This document shows, piece by piece, positions 25,276-62,711 of a stretch of DNA of 64,000 bases. Every line of letters starts with the position of its first letter. The stretch's first letter is position 1. This DNA comes from Alphaproteobacteria bacterium (GTDB lineage Bacteria > Pseudomonadota > Alphaproteobacteria > CBCXTS01). The position numbers and the translations under genes were made by a program. The notes under the pieces were generated by a model. It worked only from the letters and a program-made list of their open reading frames with translations, was not told where the DNA came from and searched no databases. The stretch covers positions 322,048-386,047 of the forward strand of contig CBCXTS010000021.1 in NCBI GenBank assembly GCA_965178085.1, read 5' to 3'.

Positions 25276-25418
25276 TAATATAATAAATTCTTTGAAATGA
25301 TGCATTTAAAAAGCAAAATAATAAACTCAAATATTCTACTAAAAATGAGTTCATGATTGGCTTTTAGATTGAGGTTATCACCTCCTATTTTACACAATAA
25401 ACCATGTCAACTATCTCC

Positions 25419-28325
25419 TTATTGCTCTGTGGAAGGACTATCGGGTATAATATTTTTTAATATACCTGGCAAAAGCAATGTGCTGGTATAGACTTCAATG
25501 TCTGGATTATCAACCAATCCTACAGCGCTAAAATCAGCTGCAAGCAGTGGTTGTAAACCTTTCTGCGTCGTTATATCACCAATGAATGGCACTGATCCTA
25601 ATAAATTATTTAACAAATAAAACGGCGCTACATTACCATCAATAGCAATCCAATCTGTACGTCTGTTATACTCACCACTAAAATTAACACCCAGTGTCAA
25701 ACTACTAGTGCGCCAATTTTCTATCTTAACAACATCGCCTTGATAATGTGCACTGCCTGTTGCTTTTGAAAAGCTAATACCATCATTTACTAACAAATCA
25801 ATAGGTGCAGACAACGACAAATGACTTAATAACGACAATAAAAATGGAGCATCACGAAGCGAATAATCTTCAAGGATAAAATCTAACCGCAGGCCATCAG
25901 AACTGTTTTGAGATACATTTTTACCTTTAAAAACTCCCCTATATAATGATTGACTAAAGTCAAAAGCGCGCAAGAAAAAACCAAGGTTTTGAATATTAAT
26001 ATTAAGATTTTGCTTGCCATCACCACTTGAATTCCAAATAAATTCTAGATTTGGTATATCGCTTACATTGAGATGATCTAATCCATCCTCTACCCCTTGT
26101 GCCATAAGGTATAATGTATCAAATTGTGCATTGTGCTTATCATAAATCAGGCGAATATCATGCATCATATTTTGATTAATGCTAATCTGATCCAAGGCAG
26201 CTAGTATTTTACCATCTGGTAGTATTTCTTCTAACAATTGATTAGAAAACATATCCTTTGCATTTGAGGATAAACCTGCTTGGTTTTTATTACTAATCAT
26301 CTTCAAATTTTTACTAGCAATACCAATTTCTAAACCTTCAGATTGTGTTTTTTTTATAAAACCCGATATTTGATTTTCTCCAAATTGTAAGTTTTCAATC
26401 TGCCAATCAAACCTACTGCTTTTATCAATTGTCATGCTAGAATCAAGAAAACTATCCAACGCCTCTACGCTCAATGTGTTTGCTTTTATGCTATAGGGCT
26501 TTATATATCCGCTGGAGTGAATGATAAAAGATTCTTCTAATTTTTTTGACCAACCAAAAAACGGTAAATCAAATTTAGCCTCAGTTAAGTCAATACTTAA
26601 ATCATAATTATTTTTGACATTATCTGCTATCGCTTTTGTAATTGTAATATCTAAATCACCCATACCTTCAACATAACCCGATATGATAGAATGCTTGATG
26701 AGAGACAAATCAATTGGCCCAGCAAAATGTATGATCGTTGGTATATTATCTTGATGAGGTAGCGCATGCTCTATTGAGACAATACCCTTAATGTCGCCTA
26801 TTTGCATATCTCCAGCAATACTATAGCCATCATTCAAGATATCACCGATTGTATGTTTGCTGATTGTAAGTTTTTTACCATGTAATATAAATGGAATTTG
26901 TCGGTGCTTTAATTGATAATGATTGATACTACCTTCAATAGTAAGTTCAGCCTGCTCATGAGAATCTAAAGAAGTCTCCAGTGGCAACAAAATTGTTAAT
27001 TTGCTTTTAACTTCACCACGCATGGCACTAACATCAAAAGATTTAAAGTTTGGATTGGAGACAATAAAAGCACTAAAAATATCAACAATACGTTTTACAT
27101 CACTATCAATATCTAACAAAATTTGTATTTGATTTTTTCCATCAACTTCAATAATATTACCTTGCAAATGGGTAGCTTTAAAGCCTTGACTGTTGCTTAC
27201 TGCATTAAAGGTTATCTTATTATTACTAAGAGTTATCTTGCCTTCAATATCAGATATTTCTTTTGCTGATTGATGCATTATTACAGAGGCATCTTTGACT
27301 TCAAGCACAGAGCTAAAATCTATTTGCGTAAAAACTCCATCACCACCGACCTTACCTTCAAAATCAAATGTAGCTTCCGTTAGATTACCAATTCCCATAT
27401 GAGTAGATAACCATACATAGACATTACTTTTAATTTGTTGTGGCCATTGCGCGTACACATCTGCAAAACTCACTTCCTTTATAAAATCTGAGTGGAAAAC
27501 CACTTTCCAACTTTTTTGATGTTCCTTTTTTTTAGAGCCATCTACATCTTGATTAGCAATTTCATCAATTCTAATGTAGCCTTTGCTCTCTAAATTACCT
27601 CGATGAAATTTAAGGTTTTTAATTTCCAAACTCTTCCCGTTACGCAAGGACAAATCGCCACTAGCTTGATCAATTAAAACTTCTTTATTATCAGCCAATG
27701 CAATATTAATATCCTTACCTTGAACGGGACCATCAAGCTCAAAATCATATGTTTTTTGATTAATCGTAAAATCAAAGCTACCAGAAAACAAACCATCAAC
27801 ACTGTTCAGCGTGTTTTCTAATAGAACAGAAGGCATCAAATGTTTGATATTTAATTTGCCTTTAAGAATATGATTATTTTCAATATCATACGATCTCAAA
27901 GAAACATGTGATTGAGCAAACTTCAAATCCCCTTCAATAAAGAAAACATTGCCTGAAAAATAAAAGCCAACCTGCAAAAATCCTGATACTCTAGCTGAGT
28001 TTTTTAAGCTTAAATCATACCCTATTGATTTTAAGACATGCGACAGAGACTGCATTTCAGCATCATTAAATCTTATATCAGCAACAAACCCAGAGCCCGT
28101 ATAATAATCAATATTATCAGTGCCCAAAAGCTGAACGGACACTCCAGATGGTACTGTATTTAAAAATAACTGCGAAAACTGTGCATAAGAGGTATCTACA
28201 GCAATCCAATTGAAGGTGCTTATAAGAAGTAATAGCTTTAGTCCAATACTTGCTAGAGCTCGTGTGGATATCTTCAATATATCAAACATGATTGTTGCAT
28301 AGGGTTGCAATATTATTAAGGCCAA
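25419..28325 (-). CDS. Large membrane-anchored periplasmic protein, AsmA/YhdP/TamB-like
   Basis: 968 aa with an N-terminal TM helix and then a long, repeat-poor, beta-rich sequence. The size and topology fit the AsmA-like family. Confidence 0.45.
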   Translation of the reverse strand: MALIILQPYATIMFDILKISTRALASIGLKLLLLISTFNWIAVDTSYAQFSQLFLNTVPSGVSVQLLGTDNIDYYTGSGFVADIRFNDAEMQSLSHVLKSIGYDLSLKNSARVSGFLQVGFYFSGNVFFIEGDLKFAQSHVSLRSYDIENNHILKGKLNIKHLMPSVLLENTLNSVDGLFSGSFDFTINQKTYDFELDGPVQGKDINIALADNKEVLIDQASGDLSLRNGKSLEIKNLKFHRGNLESKGYIRIDEIANQDVDGSKKKEHQKSWKVVFHSDFIKEVSFADVYAQWPQQIKSNVYVWLSTHMGIGNLTEATFDFEGKVGGDGVFTQIDFSSVLEVKDASVIMHQSAKEISDIEGKITLSNNKITFNAVSNSQGFKATHLQGNIIEVDGKNQIQILLDIDSDVKRIVDIFSAFIVSNPNFKSFDVSAMRGEVKSKLTILLPLETSLDSHEQAELTIEGSINHYQLKHRQIPFILHGKKLTISKHTIGDILNDGYSIAGDMQIGDIKGIVSIEHALPHQDNIPTIIHFAGPIDLSLIKHSIISGYVEGMGDLDITITKAIADNVKNNYDLSIDLTEAKFDLPFFGWSKKLEESFIIHSSGYIKPYSIKANTLSVEALDSFLDSSMTIDKSSRFDWQIENLQFGENQISGFIKKTQSEGLEIGIASKNLKMISNKNQAGLSSNAKDMFSNQLLEEILPDGKILAALDQISINQNMMHDIRLIYDKHNAQFDTLYLMAQGVEDGLDHLNVSDIPNLEFIWNSSGDGKQNLNINIQNLGFFLRAFDFSQSLYRGVFKGKNVSQNSSDGLRLDFILEDYSLRDAPFLLSLLSHLSLSAPIDLLVNDGISFSKATGSAHYQGDVVKIENWRTSSLTLGVNFSGEYNRRTDWIAIDGNVAPFYLLNNLLGSVPFIGDITTQKGLQPLLAADFSAVGLVDNPDIEVYTSTLLLPGILKNIIPDSPSTEQ

Positions 28326-31931: not shown

Positions 31932-32600
31932 GTGTCTAATACACCTGCTATTAATCTACCATATATCGTTACTTTCTTAGTACTGGTTAATATCGCATGC
32001 TATATTCTATTATCGCTAGTTCCTAGTTATATTTATCACAATATTATCATAAATTTTTCTCTTTTTCCTGATCGATATGAAACGCCAACATGGATGTTCG
32101 ATAATTGGTTTGTCGCTCTTATCTCGCTAATAAGTTATGCTTTCTTACATGGCGGATGGCTACATCTTATTGCCAACATGATATTTCTTGCAGTTTTTGG
32201 TAATGCTATCACCCGCGTTTGTGGGACACGGGTTACATTGTTTATTTATGTGACAGGTATTATTATCCCTGCCCTTGCTGTTTGTTTTTTAATACCATCC
32301 CAAGGCCGTTTTATTATTGGTGCATCTGGGGCAATAATGGCTCTTGCAGGTGCTATGACCAACATTGCCTTTGATTTTAAACTTGCGATGTATTTACCAC
32401 ATCCCTTCAACAATAAACGTAATGCTATCGCATTTTCTGTTATATTTTTGATATCTTCACTTATAATGTACGTGCTACCCATGCTCAACCATAACAGTTC
32501 GATGCATTCTGCAATAGCAGTTGATGTGCATTTACTTGGTTTTATAAGTGGAGCAATGACAATGTCACTTGTAAAGCATCAACCAAGGGGTCACTTGTAA
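31932..32600 (+). CDS. Rhomboid-family intramembrane serine protease
   Basis: Six-TM protein with GxSG (GASGAIMALAG) and a downstream His in a TM helix (HLLGFISGA). Its last 12 codons and stop codon lie inside the 26-bp tandem repeat array. Confidence 0.75.
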   Translation: MSNTPAINLPYIVTFLVLVNIACYILLSLVPSYIYHNIIINFSLFPDRYETPTWMFDNWFVALISLISYAFLHGGWLHLIANMIFLAVFGNAITRVCGTRVTLFIYVTGIIIPALAVCFLIPSQGRFIIGASGAIMALAGAMTNIAFDFKLAMYLPHPFNNKRNAIAFSVIFLISSLIMYVLPMLNHNSSMHSAIAVDVHLLGFISGAMTMSLVKHQPRGHL

Positions 32601-32720
32601 AGCATCAACCAAGGGGTCACTTGTAAAGCATCAACCAAGGGGGTCACTTGTAAAGCATCACCCAAGGGGTCACTTGTAAAGCATCAACCAAGGGGTCACT
32701 TGTAAAGCATCACCCAAGGG
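32564..32720. repeat. Six copies of a 26-bp direct tandem repeat (GTCACTTGTAAAGCATCAACCAAGGG, with CAACC/CACCC variants and one unit carrying an extra G)
   Basis: Read directly in the sequence. The units are contiguous with no spacers, so this is not a CRISPR array. The array bridges the convergent 3' ends of the rhomboid gene and ubiG. Confidence 0.9.
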
Positions 32721-33474
32721 TATCACTGTTATTTTTATAGAATGCCGCAATATAGTTAACCGCTAGATCGTGCTCACTAGTGCGCCATTGATCCGTGAAA
32801 GGGTTATATATCAAACCTTCCATTTTGCTTAAATGCATTCCTTGCGATCGTAATGCACTTACCATTTCATGCGGTTTTACAAATTTTTGCCAATCATGTG
32901 TCCCACGTGGTAACCATCTTAGGACATACTCTGCACCTACAATTGCTAATGCAAAAGACTTCAATGTTCGATTTAATGTCGCTGCTATTAATAACCCGCA
33001 AGGTTTGACTAGTTTTGCACTTGTACATAAAAATTGATTGACGTTGGGTACATGTTCAACAATCTCAAGGTTCAATACAACATCAAACTGCTTATTTTCA
33101 TGAATAAGGTCTTCTATCAAACATTTTCTATAGTTTAAACTAAGCTCTGATTCACGCATGTGCGATTGTGCAACACGTATCGTTGTTTCACTGGCATCAA
33201 TACCTAGCACTTCTGCGCCTAAGCGCGCCATTGGCTCTGATATTAAGCCTCCCCCGCAACCTACATCAAGTAACGTAAGACCTTTTAAAGGTTTTACGTT
33301 GCTTGCTTGCAAGCCAAAATGCTTAATCATAGCTTCACGCATAAATTTAATCCTAATTGGGTTGAATTGATGCAGTGGCTTAAATTTACCATTAATGTCC
33401 CACCATTCCAAAGCCATTGAATCAAACTTTGCTATTTCTTCTTCAAGCAACATTGGATTTTCTATTTTCTTCAA
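32710..33474 (-). CDS. ubiG: Ubiquinone biosynthesis O-methyltransferase
   Basis: SAM-binding motif (LDVGCGGGLISEPMARLGAEVLGIDAS) in a typical UbiG of about 250 aa. Its stop codon lies in the last repeat unit. Confidence 0.85.
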   Translation of the reverse strand: MKKIENPMLLEEEIAKFDSMALEWWDINGKFKPLHQFNPIRIKFMREAMIKHFGLQASNVKPLKGLTLLDVGCGGGLISEPMARLGAEVLGIDASETTIRVAQSHMRESELSLNYRKCLIEDLIHENKQFDVVLNLEIVEHVPNVNQFLCTSAKLVKPCGLLIAATLNRTLKSFALAIVGAEYVLRWLPRGTHDWQKFVKPHEMVSALRSQGMHLSKMEGLIYNPFTDQWRTSEHDLAVNYIAAFYKNNSDTLG

Positions 33475-36533: not shown

Positions 36534-39440
36534 TTAAGACGCTCTAAAAGGATTTCCTATGATAACACGTAAATAACCTTTTTTATTACTAACACTACGA
36601 AGTTTTAGTTGTAAGTACACAGGATGGCGTTTCTTATCATCAGACCAAAAGCTTGAATATGTTGCCATTTGTACTTCCGGCAATAAAGCTTGAAACAACG
36701 GAATTCCTTCTGTTTCTTGGCGATTAACAAAACTTTTCTGTTGATCTGGAAGTGCTGCACTGATTTTACTTAATGTTCTATCAAAAGCAAACCGCGCTTG
36801 CTCTGGATTATCAAGTAAATAACTGTCTATTTGTAAAGCAACTAACTTGCTATCTATCGTTTTATCAAACTGTAAAATGACATTAACAGGAGACATTTCA
36901 AGCCATTTATTAGCATTTAATTTGCACGCAACAAATTCATTTGCCAATTCTTGACACTTTCCAAGCTTTGATTTTAAGCTATCATATGTATCACGCCAAC
37001 TTAGTCCAAGCATTAAATGATGATAATCACTTTCATATGCAGATAAAACTAATATTTCCTGCATTTCAAGATTGCCAGAAAGCGATGCAAAATATGCTGC
37101 GTTCTGTCCTTGCTTATTTTTAGTTCTAGGATCAGCACCTGCTGCTAAAAGCGTACGTATTTCACTCGTTCTATTAAGAGCTGCTGCGCGCATTAGAGGT
37201 GTATAATCATCATATACCGAGTCTGGATTACTGCCATTTTGTAGTAAATGCTCTAAAAGTCCTCTATATCGCTGATCATTTGCATGATCAATACTAAAAT
37301 GAAGTGCCCTTATTGATGGTTGTAGCCCTGCAGCAACTAAAGCATTTGTCATGTCCCATTGATTTTCAAGAGCAACAAAATCTACTAAATTAAGTCTATT
37401 ATTTCCAAAACTATCCGGTCTATCTAATTGTATATGATCAAGAATTACTCCTTCTGGTCTTTCTTCAATCAATTCACGCAATTTTGTTACGTTGCCATTT
37501 CTTACTGCACGCTCAACTGCACCAGCAAAATCAGCTAGTAATGCACTCCCAGCTCCCGATGGGATTATGCCGGCAAGCTTTTGTCCTGCTTCTAATTTTT
37601 GTATTCGCTTTGGAGAATAGTTATTTGCATATTGATTGTTTATTTCAGATTCAGGGCCAAGTTCAAGGCTTGATTCTGTTCGCGTTATTAAAATTCTATC
37701 TAACTGTGCTTGAATTTTTGGCAACCCATCAGCTACATCCAGAGGTCCCGTTGCACAACCAGGCGATGGGTCTAGCGATGCTCCATAATTTGCTAAAACT
37801 TCAACTACTTCTCTTTGTTCATAGGCAATTGCTGCAGCAATTGGTGTCCAGCAACCTTGTGCTCCACCAGGTACTTCACTAGGAGCGCCTAATTTTAAAA
37901 GACGCTCTAATGCCTTCATCTGCCCTTCAATAGCAAGACGATGCATAATAGAGCGACCATCTCCACTATCAATAGACACATCAGCGCCGCCTTTGATTAA
38001 AAAACTTAACGTGGTTAAGTCTCCTAAATTTGCTGCAATCAGTAACGCTGGTTTTCCATATTTATCTCTTACATTGGGATCAGTTCCTGTCTCAAGTAAA
38101 CCTTTTACTTCAAGAGAGTTTCTAGCTCGTACCGCTTTAATTAAATCTGATTCCGGTAACATTTTACGCGCATCCCGCTCAAGGGAAAACACAACCCTTG
38201 TAGCCACATCTGGATTTGCTACAGTAATGGCCATTCCTGCTGCAATCACACCAACAATCAATCCGCTTGCAAGCGCTGTTCGATTACCTCTAACCTTAGC
38301 AGCACGGCGCTGTCTGGAACGCTGCACTCTTGAATTTGCTGGCAACGGTGCACGCGTACCATTGCGTATAAAAGATTCCCTACTTCGTGACTTTATGTCT
38401 GAGTTTTCTGGGCTGCTACCAAGAGGGTAACCTATTGTTTCATCATTTTTAGATGATTGCCCTTCATACATCGCTCCGCTATCAATGAGTTGCATTTTAT
38501 CGCGCATATTTTGCTGCAAATTATTGCTATCTTGCTCTTGGGGTTGATTAACTTGAGGCTCATGATTGATGTTATTCTTAATAATATCCTTTGACTTTTG
38601 CTCTAAATCATCTTGCTCTTGTTCTGTTAGGACGTTTTCTTTAAGTGAATGATTATCTAACTGCGTGTATTTTTTAATAGTCGCATTGGTATCGAAGTCA
38701 CTATTTAAAGTGTCAGAATCTTCTTGAGACAGTTTGTTTTCTGTCTTTTGTGCATTCTCAACAAGGTTAGAAAGCAATAGCGGCTCAACAGTAGATTGAT
38801 ATGATGGAACAAGGGGGGGGAGGTCAACACGTGTTTTATCTACCAAATCTATATGTACAGCTTGAGTATGATGATTTAGCGTGTTTCTGTACTCATCGTG
38901 CTCTGTAGCTTGTTCTAGATAAACTTCATGCTCTAAAGCTTCTGGTCTATAGCCTTTTCCAGTTAAACTTCTACGCTTGACATAACCGCGATAATCTAGT
39001 TGATCTGTAAATAACTCTTTATCACTCCATAACGACGGTTGGTTTAAGTTTTGATCGTTATTTAGTAATGATAATTGTGGATCAGATCGTACTTCATTGC
39101 TGCTTAGTAGATTTTGTTGCCCGTCTTGAAGAGAACTATCTTTTAAAATTGCAGATGAATTCTGATTGCCAAATGTGCTGATGTTGTTATTATCACTTTG
39201 CAATAAAACCTGTTGGGTCTTGACACCAGTAATACGCGATCTACTTTCTTCAATCAATCGTAACACATCATGCGTATTATCTTGTGTATTAAATGCAATA
39301 TAGCGCTGTGCATTAGCGCTATCATCAAAGCGAATTAAATTAACCCACTGACCAGCCTTGCGTCCTTGCACCAGATATGAGATATTTGCTGTAAAATGAC
39401 GAAACCCTTGTCCGTAACGTTTCAGCGCTTTTTTTACCAT
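36534..39440 (-). CDS. Large ankyrin-repeat protein with a central TM helix
   Basis: 968 aa. The N-terminal 370 aa are polar and low-complexity. A hydrophobic segment (ALASGLIVGVIAAGMAITVANP) is preceded by a basic cluster (RSRQRRAAKVRGNR). At least six ankyrin repeats follow (for example ALLIAANLGDLTTLSFLIKGGADVS and TPLMRAAALNRTSEIRTLLAAGADPRTKNKQGQNAAYFAS). The C-terminus is basic. Confidence 0.75.
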   Translation of the reverse strand: MVKKALKRYGQGFRHFTANISYLVQGRKAGQWVNLIRFDDSANAQRYIAFNTQDNTHDVLRLIEESRSRITGVKTQQVLLQSDNNNISTFGNQNSSAILKDSSLQDGQQNLLSSNEVRSDPQLSLLNNDQNLNQPSLWSDKELFTDQLDYRGYVKRRSLTGKGYRPEALEHEVYLEQATEHDEYRNTLNHHTQAVHIDLVDKTRVDLPPLVPSYQSTVEPLLLSNLVENAQKTENKLSQEDSDTLNSDFDTNATIKKYTQLDNHSLKENVLTEQEQDDLEQKSKDIIKNNINHEPQVNQPQEQDSNNLQQNMRDKMQLIDSGAMYEGQSSKNDETIGYPLGSSPENSDIKSRSRESFIRNGTRAPLPANSRVQRSRQRRAAKVRGNRTALASGLIVGVIAAGMAITVANPDVATRVVFSLERDARKMLPESDLIKAVRARNSLEVKGLLETGTDPNVRDKYGKPALLIAANLGDLTTLSFLIKGGADVSIDSGDGRSIMHRLAIEGQMKALERLLKLGAPSEVPGGAQGCWTPIAAAIAYEQREVVEVLANYGASLDPSPGCATGPLDVADGLPKIQAQLDRILITRTESSLELGPESEINNQYANNYSPKRIQKLEAGQKLAGIIPSGAGSALLADFAGAVERAVRNGNVTKLRELIEERPEGVILDHIQLDRPDSFGNNRLNLVDFVALENQWDMTNALVAAGLQPSIRALHFSIDHANDQRYRGLLEHLLQNGSNPDSVYDDYTPLMRAAALNRTSEIRTLLAAGADPRTKNKQGQNAAYFASLSGNLEMQEILVLSAYESDYHHLMLGLSWRDTYDSLKSKLGKCQELANEFVACKLNANKWLEMSPVNVILQFDKTIDSKLVALQIDSYLLDNPEQARFAFDRTLSKISAALPDQQKSFVNRQETEGIPLFQALLPEVQMATYSSFWSDDKKRHPVYLQLKLRSVSNKKGYLRVIIGNPFRAS

Positions 39441-40051: not shown

Positions 40052-40348
40052 TATACAAATTCACCTATAAGTAGCTAATTAATGATATTAGAGACAGTTA
40101 CCATACTGTATATGATAGATGAACCCATCAAAATAAATTCAAGCCAGCTATGTTGTTTTATACATTATTGTTGAAATTTAAAATGCTAATATTGACAATT
40201 AATAAATCATAAAAGCTATTAAAACAACCCAAGCAAGCAATCAAACCAATCTTGACAAGAATGTCTATTTGAGTGTTATAAAGGCATTAAATTTTAAATT
40301 GACATGATAACAAAAGCAATGCAATGTTTGTTTTAAAATGATGACTAT

Positions 40349-40404
40349 CAGTTAAACTAGATTCCTTAAATTACTTCAGTTAAACTAGATTCCTTAAATT
40401 ACTT
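40349..40404. repeat. Perfect tandem duplication of a 28-bp unit (CAGTTAAACTAGATTCCTTAAATTACTT x2) immediately upstream of the PagL-like gene
   Basis: Read directly in the sequence. The duplication ends 16 nt before the ATG at 40421. Confidence 0.85.
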
Positions 40405-40420: not shown

Positions 40421-40948
40421 ATGAAGCTTTTTCGATTTTATTATGTCTTTTTACTTGCTGCTATTAGCGTTTTTATTGCACCGGCATATGGTCAAACTGT
40501 ACAACAAAACCAAGACCCTAAAACTCTTCTAAGGGTTGCGGCGGGATCTTTTAATGAGTTTAAAAGTAAGCGCAATGGTGCTGTTACAGTTGATCTTACC
40601 TTGCCTTATAGCATCGATTTACCTTATGATTGGTGGTTTGTTCAACCTTTTGTAGGTGCAATGATTACATCAAAAAATGCTGCATACGGATATGCAGGAT
40701 TTAAGCTTGACTACCCTATGAATGAAAACATCTATCTTACCCCTTCATTTGCCCCGGGGCTATTTTCACATGGTGATGGCAAAGATTTGGGTTATTGGAT
40801 TGAGTTTAGAAGTGGCATGGAAGTTTCTTGGAAATTTGACAATAATAATAGACTTGGACTTGAAGTAGCACATATATCAAATGCTGGTTTATCCAATAAA
40901 AACCCGGGCGTTGAATTATTGACGTTAAGCTGGACATATCCTCTTTAA
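40421..40948 (+). CDS. Outer-membrane lipid A deacylase, PagL-like (acyloxyacyl hydrolase)
   Basis: Signal peptide, a beta-barrel of about 150 aa with aromatic girdles, and a C-terminal HxSNAG motif (VAHISNAGLS) as in the PagL His/Ser site. Confidence 0.6.
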   Translation: MKLFRFYYVFLLAAISVFIAPAYGQTVQQNQDPKTLLRVAAGSFNEFKSKRNGAVTVDLTLPYSIDLPYDWWFVQPFVGAMITSKNAAYGYAGFKLDYPMNENIYLTPSFAPGLFSHGDGKDLGYWIEFRSGMEVSWKFDNNNRLGLEVAHISNAGLSNKNPGVELLTLSWTYPL

Positions 40949-55796: not shown

Positions 55797-57842
55797 TCAT
55801 TGAACATTCATCACTGATCTTGCAATACGAAAGCCAATCTTATCACTTGGATTGCGACCAGCTTTACGATAACTGGCTCGAAGTTCTCTCAGTGTAGCGC
55901 TTGCCCAACTTGAACCTTTCACAACATGTTTAAGAGAATTGCTATGATTTGGTTGAGGGCCCATCGGATCAGTATATACTTTTTGATTAGGTTTAGCAAA
56001 ACTATACAAATCATGTGTCCACTCACTAACATTACCAATCAAGTCATAAATTCCAAGAATATTTTGCTTGAAACTTCCTACTGGGGCAGTTTTGATATAC
56101 CCGTCTTGATAGTTTGGGATCATACGCTTTGTTGTACCTTGAGCTGAAGCATCTGCTAAATTGCCTGCCTGCTTTGGAACGGTACTATCATCGCCCCAAA
56201 TGAATTTTGTTGTAGTGTCTTTTCCTGCTTTACGCGCTAACCATTCCCATTCTGCTTCCGTTGGCAATCTGTATCCATTGGCCTTAGCATTATAGCCTTC
56301 ATATTTCCCATCAGCATTAAATCGATAGAATTGTTGCAAACCTTCTTTTTGACTAAGCCAATTGCAAAATTCTGCTGCTTGATTCCAAGTAATATTAGTA
56401 ACTGGCAATTGATCTAGTGATGCGTGTTCTATATTAAAAGCTTGATATTGTTTATTAGTAATTTCATATTTGCTAATTGCTAATTGCTTTGTAAACTGTA
56501 TCTGGCGCAAATGTTCATTCCTAATGCGTCCTTTTTCATTAGCAGGGCTTCCAATTGTTATTGCATCAGGCATAACATTAAGCATTACAATGCCAAGTTT
56601 ACTGGCAAAATGTTGATCCGCTTGATCTTGTAATATTTCAGACAAGCTTTTTAGTTCTATATTGAGCGCAAGCGCTTTGTTGTAACTTAACTCTATTTCT
56701 TGCTTAAATACCTGATAACCTGGAGCTTTTGCTTGTATTGTATATGTTGCCGCTGGGATGTCTATTGATATTGGAGTTTTAGCAAATAGTTGACCATCGA
56801 TATAAATATTTGCTCTTGGTTTACTTGTAATCGCCAAAGAACCTATTGCTTGTTTAAGGTCAAATTCAATAACTTTTAATTCACCAGGTAAAAGTTTAAT
56901 ATTGTTTGTTGCCTTTATATAACCATCTTTTTCATAGTTAATTTCAAGGGCTTTATTCGATACAAAAGACTGAGCTTCAGAACCATCTACAAGCTTGTTA
57001 TTAACCAGCAACTGCCCTCCTTCAGGGTATAATATAAAATCTATATATGCCTTTTTAGGATTTAAAATATAATGGCGTTCAATCACTGATTGGTCCACAG
57101 TGATATCAATTAAGTCATATCTCGTATCATATCCTTTAGATTCTATTGAGAGTTGATGCTTTCCTGGTTTCATTTTCAAATTCTGTGGCGTTGTTCCAAC
57201 TACATTTCCTTCAATATATAAAGTCTGCCCTGTTGGTTTTGAAGTCACTTTTAATGACCCTTCAACGGCTTTTAGCTGAAAAAACAAACGATGCACTCCA
57301 CCTCGTTTGGTGACTATCTTTTCACTGATTGGTTGATAGTGCGGATGGCTAACTGATATGGTTTGCTCTCCAACATCTATTGCTTTTGAAAAGCTTACTC
57401 CTTGATGCAGTTGCTCTCCATTAACAAACCATTGCAAACTTGAATCATCTATATTAGTGCTGGCAGTTACTATAGGAGCAATGGGCTCCATATTAATGCG
57501 AAGAGTCTCATCTAAATGTTCATCTAACCTTATTGTTTTTACTACAAAGCCATCTGCTGCAATTTGTATTGTTGTAGGAATAGCACCAATAAAATAAAAA
57601 CCCTTTTCATAAGATATTGCAAAGCCTTCAATTGTATCTATTTCGATATCAATGCTTGCATCATTAGGCTGGATATCTAAATTGACTGAACGCAATAAAA
57701 ACAACCAAACACTAAAAACCAATACAGCAAAAAGCAATACTAAACCATACAACAATGTTGATAGGCCAAACCTCACTTTAGCTTGTTTGAACTGCTTAGT
57801 TATAGGATCAGATGGATGAGAGTGATCAAACTGGCTCATCAC
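55797..57842 (-). CDS. Membrane-anchored protein with tandem PEGA-like beta domains and a C-terminal FGE/SUMF1-fold domain that lacks the catalytic cysteines
   Basis: N-terminal TM helix (FGLSTLLYGLVLLFAVLVFSVWLFLL). At least four PEGA-like repeats (for example GSLKVTSKPTGQTLYIEGNVVGTTPQNLKMKPGKHQLSIESKGYDTRY). The FGE domain is NITWNQAAEFCNWL...YRLPTEAEWEWLA...GNVSEWTHD...VKGSSWASATLRELRASYR...IGFRIA. No Cys occurs where FGE carries its catalytic Cys pair. Confidence 0.8.
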   Translation of the reverse strand: MMSQFDHSHPSDPITKQFKQAKVRFGLSTLLYGLVLLFAVLVFSVWLFLLRSVNLDIQPNDASIDIEIDTIEGFAISYEKGFYFIGAIPTTIQIAADGFVVKTIRLDEHLDETLRINMEPIAPIVTASTNIDDSSLQWFVNGEQLHQGVSFSKAIDVGEQTISVSHPHYQPISEKIVTKRGGVHRLFFQLKAVEGSLKVTSKPTGQTLYIEGNVVGTTPQNLKMKPGKHQLSIESKGYDTRYDLIDITVDQSVIERHYILNPKKAYIDFILYPEGGQLLVNNKLVDGSEAQSFVSNKALEINYEKDGYIKATNNIKLLPGELKVIEFDLKQAIGSLAITSKPRANIYIDGQLFAKTPISIDIPAATYTIQAKAPGYQVFKQEIELSYNKALALNIELKSLSEILQDQADQHFASKLGIVMLNVMPDAITIGSPANEKGRIRNEHLRQIQFTKQLAISKYEITNKQYQAFNIEHASLDQLPVTNITWNQAAEFCNWLSQKEGLQQFYRFNADGKYEGYNAKANGYRLPTEAEWEWLARKAGKDTTTKFIWGDDSTVPKQAGNLADASAQGTTKRMIPNYQDGYIKTAPVGSFKQNILGIYDLIGNVSEWTHDLYSFAKPNQKVYTDPMGPQPNHSNSLKHVVKGSSWASATLRELRASYRKAGRNPSDKIGFRIARSVMNVQ

Positions 57843-61478: not shown

Positions 61479-62711
61479 TTAAACAATATCTAGCTTTGGA
61501 GATACAATAACAAACTGGCAACCCCACTCGCGAACATGCTGAAGCGTTGCTATAATTTCATCTTTAATATTCCAAGGTAAAATAACAATATAATCTGGTT
61601 GGATGGTGTCTATTACAGTTGGAGATGCAATTGGTATATGGCTTCCTGGGGCTAATTTATTTTGCTTATGTATATTTAAATCTACAATATATGAAATATC
61701 ATCACAGCTCATTTTACAGTAATTCAATAATGTATTGCCTTTTGCAGCAGCACCATAGGCAATAATTTTTTTATTATTTGCGCGTGCCTGTTCAACAAAC
61801 TCAATAAAAGCATCACTTGTTGTAGCAACTCTAGAGGCAAAACTTAAATAAGCTTCTTCACAATCCAATTTTGCATCCATTTCTCTTTCAATGAAGTTAT
61901 GTACTGCTGGTAGCTGTATATGTGCGCTATTTTCATGGCAAACCCACACACGATAAGACCCTCCATGGGTTGCTAATTCTTCGACATCAAAAATTCGTAA
62001 ATCATATTTTTTAAAAAAACCTTGCAAAAACAGCAACGATAAATATGAAAAATGCTCATGATAAATTGTATCAAATTGTGTATAATTTATCAAATTGAGT
62101 AAACTAGGAAACTCAAAGCTAATGACGCCTTGTGTAGCAAGCATTACCTTGAAACCCGCCATAAAACTATGCAAATCGGGAACATGCGCCAACACATTAT
62201 TAGCAATCATTAAGTCTGCTTTAGGGTATTTCTTTAGCAATTCCTTGGCAGTGCTTTCGTTAAAAAAAACACCTTCTGTTGGAATAGATTGATTGCGAGC
62301 TATTTCTGCAACATTTTTTGCAGGTTCAACACCTAAAATAGGTATGTCGTATCCAATAAAATGGCGCAATAGATAACCGTCATTTGAGGCAATTTCAACA
62401 ATAAAATTTGAACGATTAAGCTTGAACCTTTCTACAACATAATGGGTATAGTCTTCTGCATGCTTAAGCCATGTCGATGAATATGATGAAAAATACGCGT
62501 AATGGCTAAATATCGATGATACTGGCACTACATCATCAACCTGTACAAGCAAGCATTGCTTACAAAAGCGTGCGTGCAAAGGATAGTACGTATTTTTTCT
62601 ATCAGCGTATGCAGTCTCAACAAATGCGTTGGCCAAAGGCATTTGGCCTAAATCGACAACTGTTGTAAGCGGACGAGTACCGCAATTTCTACATTGTGGG
62701 TTCATTTTCAT
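61479..62711 (-). CDS. Class I SAM-dependent methyltransferase with an N-terminal Zn-ribbon (sugar C-methyltransferase-like)
   Basis: CxxC...C Zn-ribbon (CRNCGTRP...CKQCLL), a methyltransferase core and a C-terminal C-methyltransferase-type domain. The architecture is that of NDP-hexose C-methyltransferases. Confidence 0.7.
   Translation of the reverse strand: MKMNPQCRNCGTRPLTTVVDLGQMPLANAFVETAYADRKNTYYPLHARFCKQCLLVQVDDVVPVSSIFSHYAYFSSYSSTWLKHAEDYTHYVVERFKLNRSNFIVEIASNDGYLLRHFIGYDIPILGVEPAKNVAEIARNQSIPTEGVFFNESTAKELLKKYPKADLMIANNVLAHVPDLHSFMAGFKVMLATQGVISFEFPSLLNLINYTQFDTIYHEHFSYLSLLFLQGFFKKYDLRIFDVEELATHGGSYRVWVCHENSAHIQLPAVHNFIEREMDAKLDCEEAYLSFASRVATTSDAFIEFVEQARANNKKIIAYGAAAKGNTLLNYCKMSCDDISYIVDLNIHKQNKLAPGSHIPIASPTVIDTIQPDYIVILPWNIKDEIIATLQHVREWGCQFVIVSPKLDIV

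Follow-up and report, generated by a model that had tools for sequence, protein, structure and literature searches.

The locus between a rhomboid protease gene and ubiG raises the question of what a tandem repeat does when it forms the 3′ ends of two convergent genes at once, and whether it acts as a switch of the two proteins, as a terminator between the genes, or as neither. We analysed this locus within the whole surrounding stretch of DNA of 64,000 nt, hereafter the window. An earlier note on this DNA had described the repeat and had predicted consequences for both genes, and its claims are taken up below where the results bear on them.

Anatomy of the array and of the two gene ends

We found that 32564-32720 forms a tandem array with a period of 26, 6.0 copies, 96% matches and a score of 291 in Tandem Repeats Finder, while the next-best array in the 64-kb window scored only 115; an additional 79-nt row in the same output represents the same 26-bp array. 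Searching the window with the consensus 26-mer at up to one mismatch returned six matches, against 0.00 expected from 100 shuffles. The start-to-start distances of the units are 26, 26, 27, 26 and 26, and the units abut, with the whole array in perfect register. Its GC content is 48%, compared with 37% in the window. The earlier description, namely six 26-bp copies at this position with one A/C site and one extra G, was thus confirmed in every detail. The features of the locus are as follows.

31932-32600, plus strand: rhomboid-family intramembrane serine protease gene, 222 aa (open reading frame, Pfam, homologue alignment)
32564-32720, unstranded: tandem array with consensus GTCACTTGTAAAGCATCAMCCAAGGG, six units of 26 bp, unit 3 being 27 bp
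32564-32589, plus strand: unit 1, which is the rhomboid gene's own 3′ coding end (alignment; the Pfam match ends at residue 212)
32598-32600, plus strand: stop of the rhomboid gene (TAA), within unit 2 and 37 nt from the near edge of the array
32601-32709, unstranded: spacer of 109 nt between the stop codons, made wholly of repeat units (sequence)
32642, unstranded: extra G (GGGGG run) that makes unit 3 27 nt long, in the non-coding part
32710-32712, minus strand: ubiG stop codon TGA (tca on the plus strand), in unit 6, 11 nt from the far edge of the array
32710-33453, minus strand: ubiG gene, 247 aa, with the ATG at 33453 and the longest open reading frame reaching 33474 (open reading frame, NCBIfam)
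32721-32740, plus strand: unique sequence past the array, which would carry the rhomboid frame in a single-unit state (sequence)

The units fall into two types. Units 1, 2, 3 and 5 end in ...CATCAACCAAGGG (CAACC type, with A at the variant site), and units 4 and 6 end in ...CATCACCCAAGGG (CACCC type, with C at the variant site), giving the order A A A(+G) C A C along the array. The flanking T at 32563 and T at 32721 break the unit, and no partial seventh copy in register was seen at the array edges; there are therefore exactly six copies. All six reading frames are closed inside the array, with two stops in each plus-strand frame and four in each minus-strand frame, and stops for every frame occur within a stretch of three units.

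We considered it improbable that the repeat is real but that its copy number, the extra G or both stem from mis-assembly or homopolymer error. Copy counts of short tandem arrays are often wrong, and the extra G turns a G4 into a G5 homopolymer, which is a typical error site. However, an ordinary read is longer than the 157 nt of the array, the two unit types follow one another in an orderly pattern (AAACAC), and the rhomboid stop, which is also present in the public protein model, requires at least two units.

The plus-strand gene was identified by the Pfam Rhomboid family (PF01694, 71 bits, residues 64-212 of 222), and both the GASG serine and the TM6 histidine are present. The protein ends in ...MSLVKHQPRGHL, as does a public protein model of the same length (P0001, 222 aa). 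The final 11 codons of the gene (S212-L222), together with the stop, are contributed by unit 1 plus 11 nt at the start of unit 2. In an alignment with 58 rhomboid homologues, the residues SLVKHQPR (S212-R219) encoded by unit 1 aligned with RLFxPRxx, the segment that follows the catalytic-His helix TM6. Since this post-TM6 segment is conserved, unit 1 belongs to the gene itself instead of being an insertion, and units 2-6 are probably young copies for which unit 1 served as the template. Read in the rhomboid frame, the A/C variant would give Q218H.

The minus-strand gene matched NCBIfam TIGR01983 (UbiG, 283 bits, residues 6-235 of 247). The protein ends in ...NNSDTLG, and the public protein model P0121 (247 aa) has the same C-terminus. 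Unit 6 gives ubiG only part of the T245 codon, L246, G247 and the stop, and the A/C variant hits the Gly247 codon, where it is synonymous (GGT or GGG). Among 50 UbiG homologues, conservation extends through ...VNY and is followed by variable tails of 2-20 aa. Judging from the two family models and the UbiG alignment, the conserved cores of both proteins finish before or at the array edge. As the earlier note had stated, the array supplies both stop codons; these are the TAA in unit 2 and the TGA in unit 6. No function of the array has been demonstrated other than providing these stops and two short tails that are not conserved.

Coding effect of gaining and losing units

The unit length of 26 bp is indeed not divisible by 3, and on this ground it had been claimed that any change in copy number would alter the rhomboid tail and stop, and that the ubiG stop could be displaced as well. 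We simulated all contiguous whole-unit deletions and duplications, 41 events altogether. Both proteins remained unchanged in 36 of these 41 events, including all 21 duplications. The exceptions were the collapse to one unit, which produced a rhomboid of 225 aa ending in ...PRVSLLFL, and deletions that moved the 27-nt unit or a C-type unit to an edge of the array. In a second simulation, exchange was allowed wherever two positions had 12 or more identical nt in common, and 24 distinct products resulted. Both proteins were identical to the present ones in 21 of them (all 12 duplications and 9 of the 12 deletions), and the remaining three deletions altered the rhomboid tail.

These results overturned the first claim, as 36/41 and 21/24 simulated changes were coding-neutral. 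The second fared no better, with UbiG altered in a single whole-unit event (1/41) and in none of the homology-mediated products (0/24). As each gene has its stop in the unit closest to it, the units that are gained or lost lie downstream of both stops. Copy gain or loss would almost never change either protein. The locus also cautions against a common reading of such repeats, in that a unit not divisible by 3 need not be frameshifting when the stops occupy the gene-proximal units.

The same simulations bear on whether the array is a contingency locus, at which 26-nt slippage would switch the C-terminus and stop of the rhomboid and perhaps of UbiG. We regard this as highly improbable. The unit is indivisible by 3, the array overlaps both coding ends, and the three rare deletions do give altered rhomboids (Q218H, a 231-aa form and a 225-aa form). 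However, the stops sit in the gene-proximal units, all duplications and 9/12 deletions are neutral, UbiG is affected in 0/24 products, and the affected residues lie outside the conserved domains of both proteins. Moreover, all frames are closed in the array, and the locus is therefore no frameshift switch. Known contingency loci have units of 1-7 nt and lie early in open reading frames or in promoters. Compared with such phase-variable simple-sequence loci, the array is alike in having a unit not divisible by 3 and a tract that touches coding sequence, whereas its unit is 26 nt rather than 1-7 nt, it is placed beyond both stops at the very 3′ ends, and its copy changes are coding-neutral. As a candidate phase-variable contingency locus it was consequently rejected: the unit length fits, but the simulations did not show the shift of frame.

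Search for termination and binding signals

The earlier note had further suggested that the repeat could function as a terminator of convergent transcription. No terminator-like site was found in or beside the array, which has neither a GC-rich hairpin nor a T/U run, and no promoter-like sites were found in the array. The RNA fold of 32540-32760 was less stable than that of shuffled sequences on the two strands (z +1.15 and +1.03). Unit dimers folded as RNA gave z +0.84 and +0.50, and the array folded as DNA gave z +1.32. Rfam returned no match at the gathering threshold in the window and none at E≤1 in 32400-32900. The suggestion was therefore not borne out, there being no hairpin and no T-run, and both strands folding less stably than shuffled sequence. 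An intrinsic terminator, defined by a stem-loop plus a T/U run, was rejected on the same observations, with fold z values of +0.5 to +1.3. Intrinsic bidirectional terminators occupy the same position between convergent genes, whereas the array is without a stem-loop or U-tract and its folding is weaker than in shuffled controls.

A bidirectional terminator or insulator of another kind, being Rho-dependent, a protein roadblock, or a plain spacer that limits antisense overlap, was also weighed, and we hold it to be unlikely. The array does lie exactly between the convergent genes. Five other convergent pairs of open reading frames of at least 120 aa occur in the window, with gaps of 73, 121, 143, 571 and 861 nt, of which the 571- and 861-nt gaps may contain smaller open reading frames; the 109-nt spacer is inside the 73-143 nt range of the three shortest. 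Sites with a hairpin plus a T-run in window positions 1-40000 numbered 20 against 15.4±4.5 and 11 against 12.6±4.0 expected from shuffles. Canonical terminators are thus not enriched in the window, so other means of termination may be in use, and the organism may make little use of canonical intrinsic termination. In the same 40,000 positions, a single weak terminator-like site was seen at a convergent junction (25371-25384). Such a role of the array is opposed by the lack of a hairpin, of a T/U tract and of any Rfam match even at E≤1. The unit contains 6 C and 6 G on either strand and hence shows no C>G bias, so that it is not rut-like, and the units copy coding sequence instead of forming a dedicated element.

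We also assigned a very low probability to the possibility that the array is an actively variable spacer, selected for resolving a 31-nt overlap of the two genes (see below), with the copy number tuning antisense overlap or with the array acting as a non-hairpin terminator or roadblock.

Six phased 26-bp direct repeats are superficially iteron-like, which raises the idea of a protein-binding array (iteron- or operator-like) or of a dispersed or mobile repeat. This idea appears extremely unlikely to us. Other genomic copies of the 26-mer, which the earlier note had brought up, were absent from the 64-kb window at up to three mismatches, and a 23-mer of the unit had no exact match in three public DNA collections (GTDB species-representative genomes, JGI metagenome contigs and IMG/VR). 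The array has no inverted or terminal repeats, and its unit derives from coding sequence. GC skew is negative in each 4-kb bin, and the cumulative skew falls monotonically across window positions 1-64000, indicating that the whole window lies on one replichore and has no origin or terminus. The iteron reading is opposed by this skew and by the housekeeping neighbours glnE, peroxiredoxin, ubiG and meaB.

Three named repeat classes were rejected in turn. A CRISPR array was rejected because the units abut and leave no spacers. Iterons were rejected on the absence of a replication initiator among the neighbours (glnE, peroxiredoxin, rhomboid, ubiG and meaB) and of a GC-skew switch, and a REP/MITE-like dispersed repeat on the absence of both a further copy in the 64 kb at up to three mismatches and inverted arms. 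Elsewhere in the window, a 22-nt motif, TATAATGTATCAAATTGTGCAT, was observed at 26110-26131, 62062-62083 and 62081-62102 with 82-86% identity. Two of these three sites stand in tandem with 19-nt spacing, and they could be a regulatory site or a chance occurrence.

Origin, lineage and comparison with known repeats

Taken together, we consider it likely that the array is a young, lineage-specific minisatellite made by slippage and probably neutral. In the proposed course of events, a 26-bp segment at the rhomboid/ubiG 3′ junction would have been duplicated in tandem by replication slippage or unequal exchange. When we reconstructed the locus with one unit, the rhomboid frame ran on to a TAG at 32738-32740 (...PRVSLLFL before the stop) and overlapped ubiG by 31 nt. 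In this reconstruction a second unit turns the overlap into a gap of 4 nt, and with the present six units the gap measures 109 nt. With the first duplication, an in-frame TAA would have come to lie 11 nt into unit 2, so that the two genes no longer overlapped and the rhomboid ended in ...PRGHL instead of approximately ...PRVSLLFL. Each later unit would merely have added 26 nt of non-coding spacer.

Several observations in the units bear on this course. The variants among units are consistent with slippage, as the earlier note had proposed, and their pattern fits several recent slippage or unequal-exchange events. The order A A A(+G) C A C indicates that, after the A-to-C change, two units (52-53 bp) were duplicated together on at least one occasion. 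The units are near-identical even though coding sequence is confined to unit 1 and small portions of units 2 and 6, which suggests that the events were recent. No in-register microhomology that would mark the first slippage was found at the array borders. The only similarity at the borders is a weak one, between TCACTGT at 32723-32729 and the unit start TCACTTGT; it is shifted by one base from the register, and this TCACT match may be due to chance. Based on these features, a slippage origin, a single-copy ancestor and a recent age are each probable, and the absence of signals suggests that the array is most likely neutral or nearly so.

A second tandem duplication was observed in the window. 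It consists of two exact copies of a 28-bp sequence at 40348-40403 (TCAGTTAAACTAGATTCCTTAAATTACT), with 5 nt of a third copy to 40408, indicating that this genome generates tandem duplications of 26-28 bp. Some 13-18 nt separate its end from the downstream ATG of an open reading frame at 40421-40948, in which Pfam recognised a PagL lipid A 3-O-deacylase domain (59.9 bits). As the 28-bp duplication lies in the 5′ leader or ribosome-binding region, it could affect expression, unlike the 26-bp array. Both the array and this duplication could be used as PCR length markers for strain typing, if variation exists.

We then turned to the lineage, since the earlier note had spoken of Bartonella-like genomes. 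Among 5.8 billion clusters, the rhomboid and UbiG each stand alone as a singleton, and both come from one NCBI contig of 955,272 bp. Their closest relatives share 36-40% (rhomboid) and 57-60% (UbiG) identity. For a comparison of the junction, we used the best 80 ubiG loci among GTDB species representatives, none of which exceeds 57% identity; the search succeeded for the positive control, ubiG. These 80 loci span many alphaproteobacterial families, including Kiloniellaceae, Ferrovibrio, Parvibaculaceae, Pelagibacteraceae, Devosia and others. None of them carries rhomboid, peroxiredoxin, meaB or glnE within 3 kb of ubiG. As no rhomboid lies near ubiG in these best 80 loci, the rhomboid-ubiG junction is lineage-specific. 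The link to Bartonella did not hold, given that there was no Bartonella among the best 80 ubiG loci and that the nearest UbiG and rhomboid sequences are so distant. By these protein comparisons, the organism is best described as an orphan alphaproteobacterium and not a Bartonella.

The 37% GC, an ankyrin-repeat protein of 968 aa and a contig of about 1 Mb suggest a host-associated organism with a reduced genome. This protein is encoded at 36534-39440 on the minus strand. Its ankyrin repeats lie at about residues 727-798 (Pfam Ank_2, 77 bits), and no NCBIfam family was found for it at E≤1e-20. It looks like a candidate eukaryote-like effector, which would be consistent with a host-associated lifestyle. 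Another minus-strand open reading frame of 968 aa, at 25419-28325, had no Pfam match at E≤1e-3 and no NCBIfam match at E≤1e-20, and is unrelated to the equally long ankyrin protein (BLASTP E=1.3). In a minus-strand open reading frame of 681 aa at 55797-57842, PEGA domains are joined by an FGE-sulfatase domain at the C-terminus (GldK/PorK-like, 106 bits, below cutoff), an architecture that is unexpected in a small alphaproteobacterial genome.

The locus is of minor mechanistic importance. It shows how a tandem duplication at a convergent junction can re-terminate a gene, remove an overlap, and then grow without coding effect.

The array has the properties by which minisatellites are defined, namely head-to-tail units of about 10-100 bp with high identity, and by analogy it resembles intergenic minisatellites of other small alphaproteobacterial genomes. 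In Bartonella henselae, the MLVA typing loci BHV-A to BHV-E comprise one intergenic and four intragenic loci (PMC3428342). The array shares with them that it is a tandem repeat in an alphaproteobacterium, whereas the window is not Bartonella and there is no sequence relationship. It was therefore rejected as a Bartonella BHV locus: the best relatives of UbiG, which do not exceed 60% identity, belong to diverse alphaproteobacterial families and include no Bartonella, and those of the rhomboid reach no more than 40%. In Wolbachia, the wMel genome contains 93 tandem-repeat loci, and VNTR-105 and VNTR-141 have been described (PMC3287509). The repeats of Ehrlichia ruminantium expand and contract in non-coding regions (PMC10710844). 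With these systems the array shares head-to-tail, near-identical units, a genome of about 1 Mb and a presumed origin by slipped-strand mispairing. Strain variability has been shown for the Wolbachia and Ehrlichia loci, whereas the 26-bp array is known from one genome. With 105 and 141 bp, the Wolbachia periods exceed that of the array, and they contain hairpins, whereas the 26-bp unit has none. The array has one slightly unusual feature, in that the 3′ ends of two convergent genes meet in its unit and the array hence holds both stops; unlike the Wolbachia and Ehrlichia repeats, the 26-bp unit copies a gene 3′ end and carries the stop codons of two genes.
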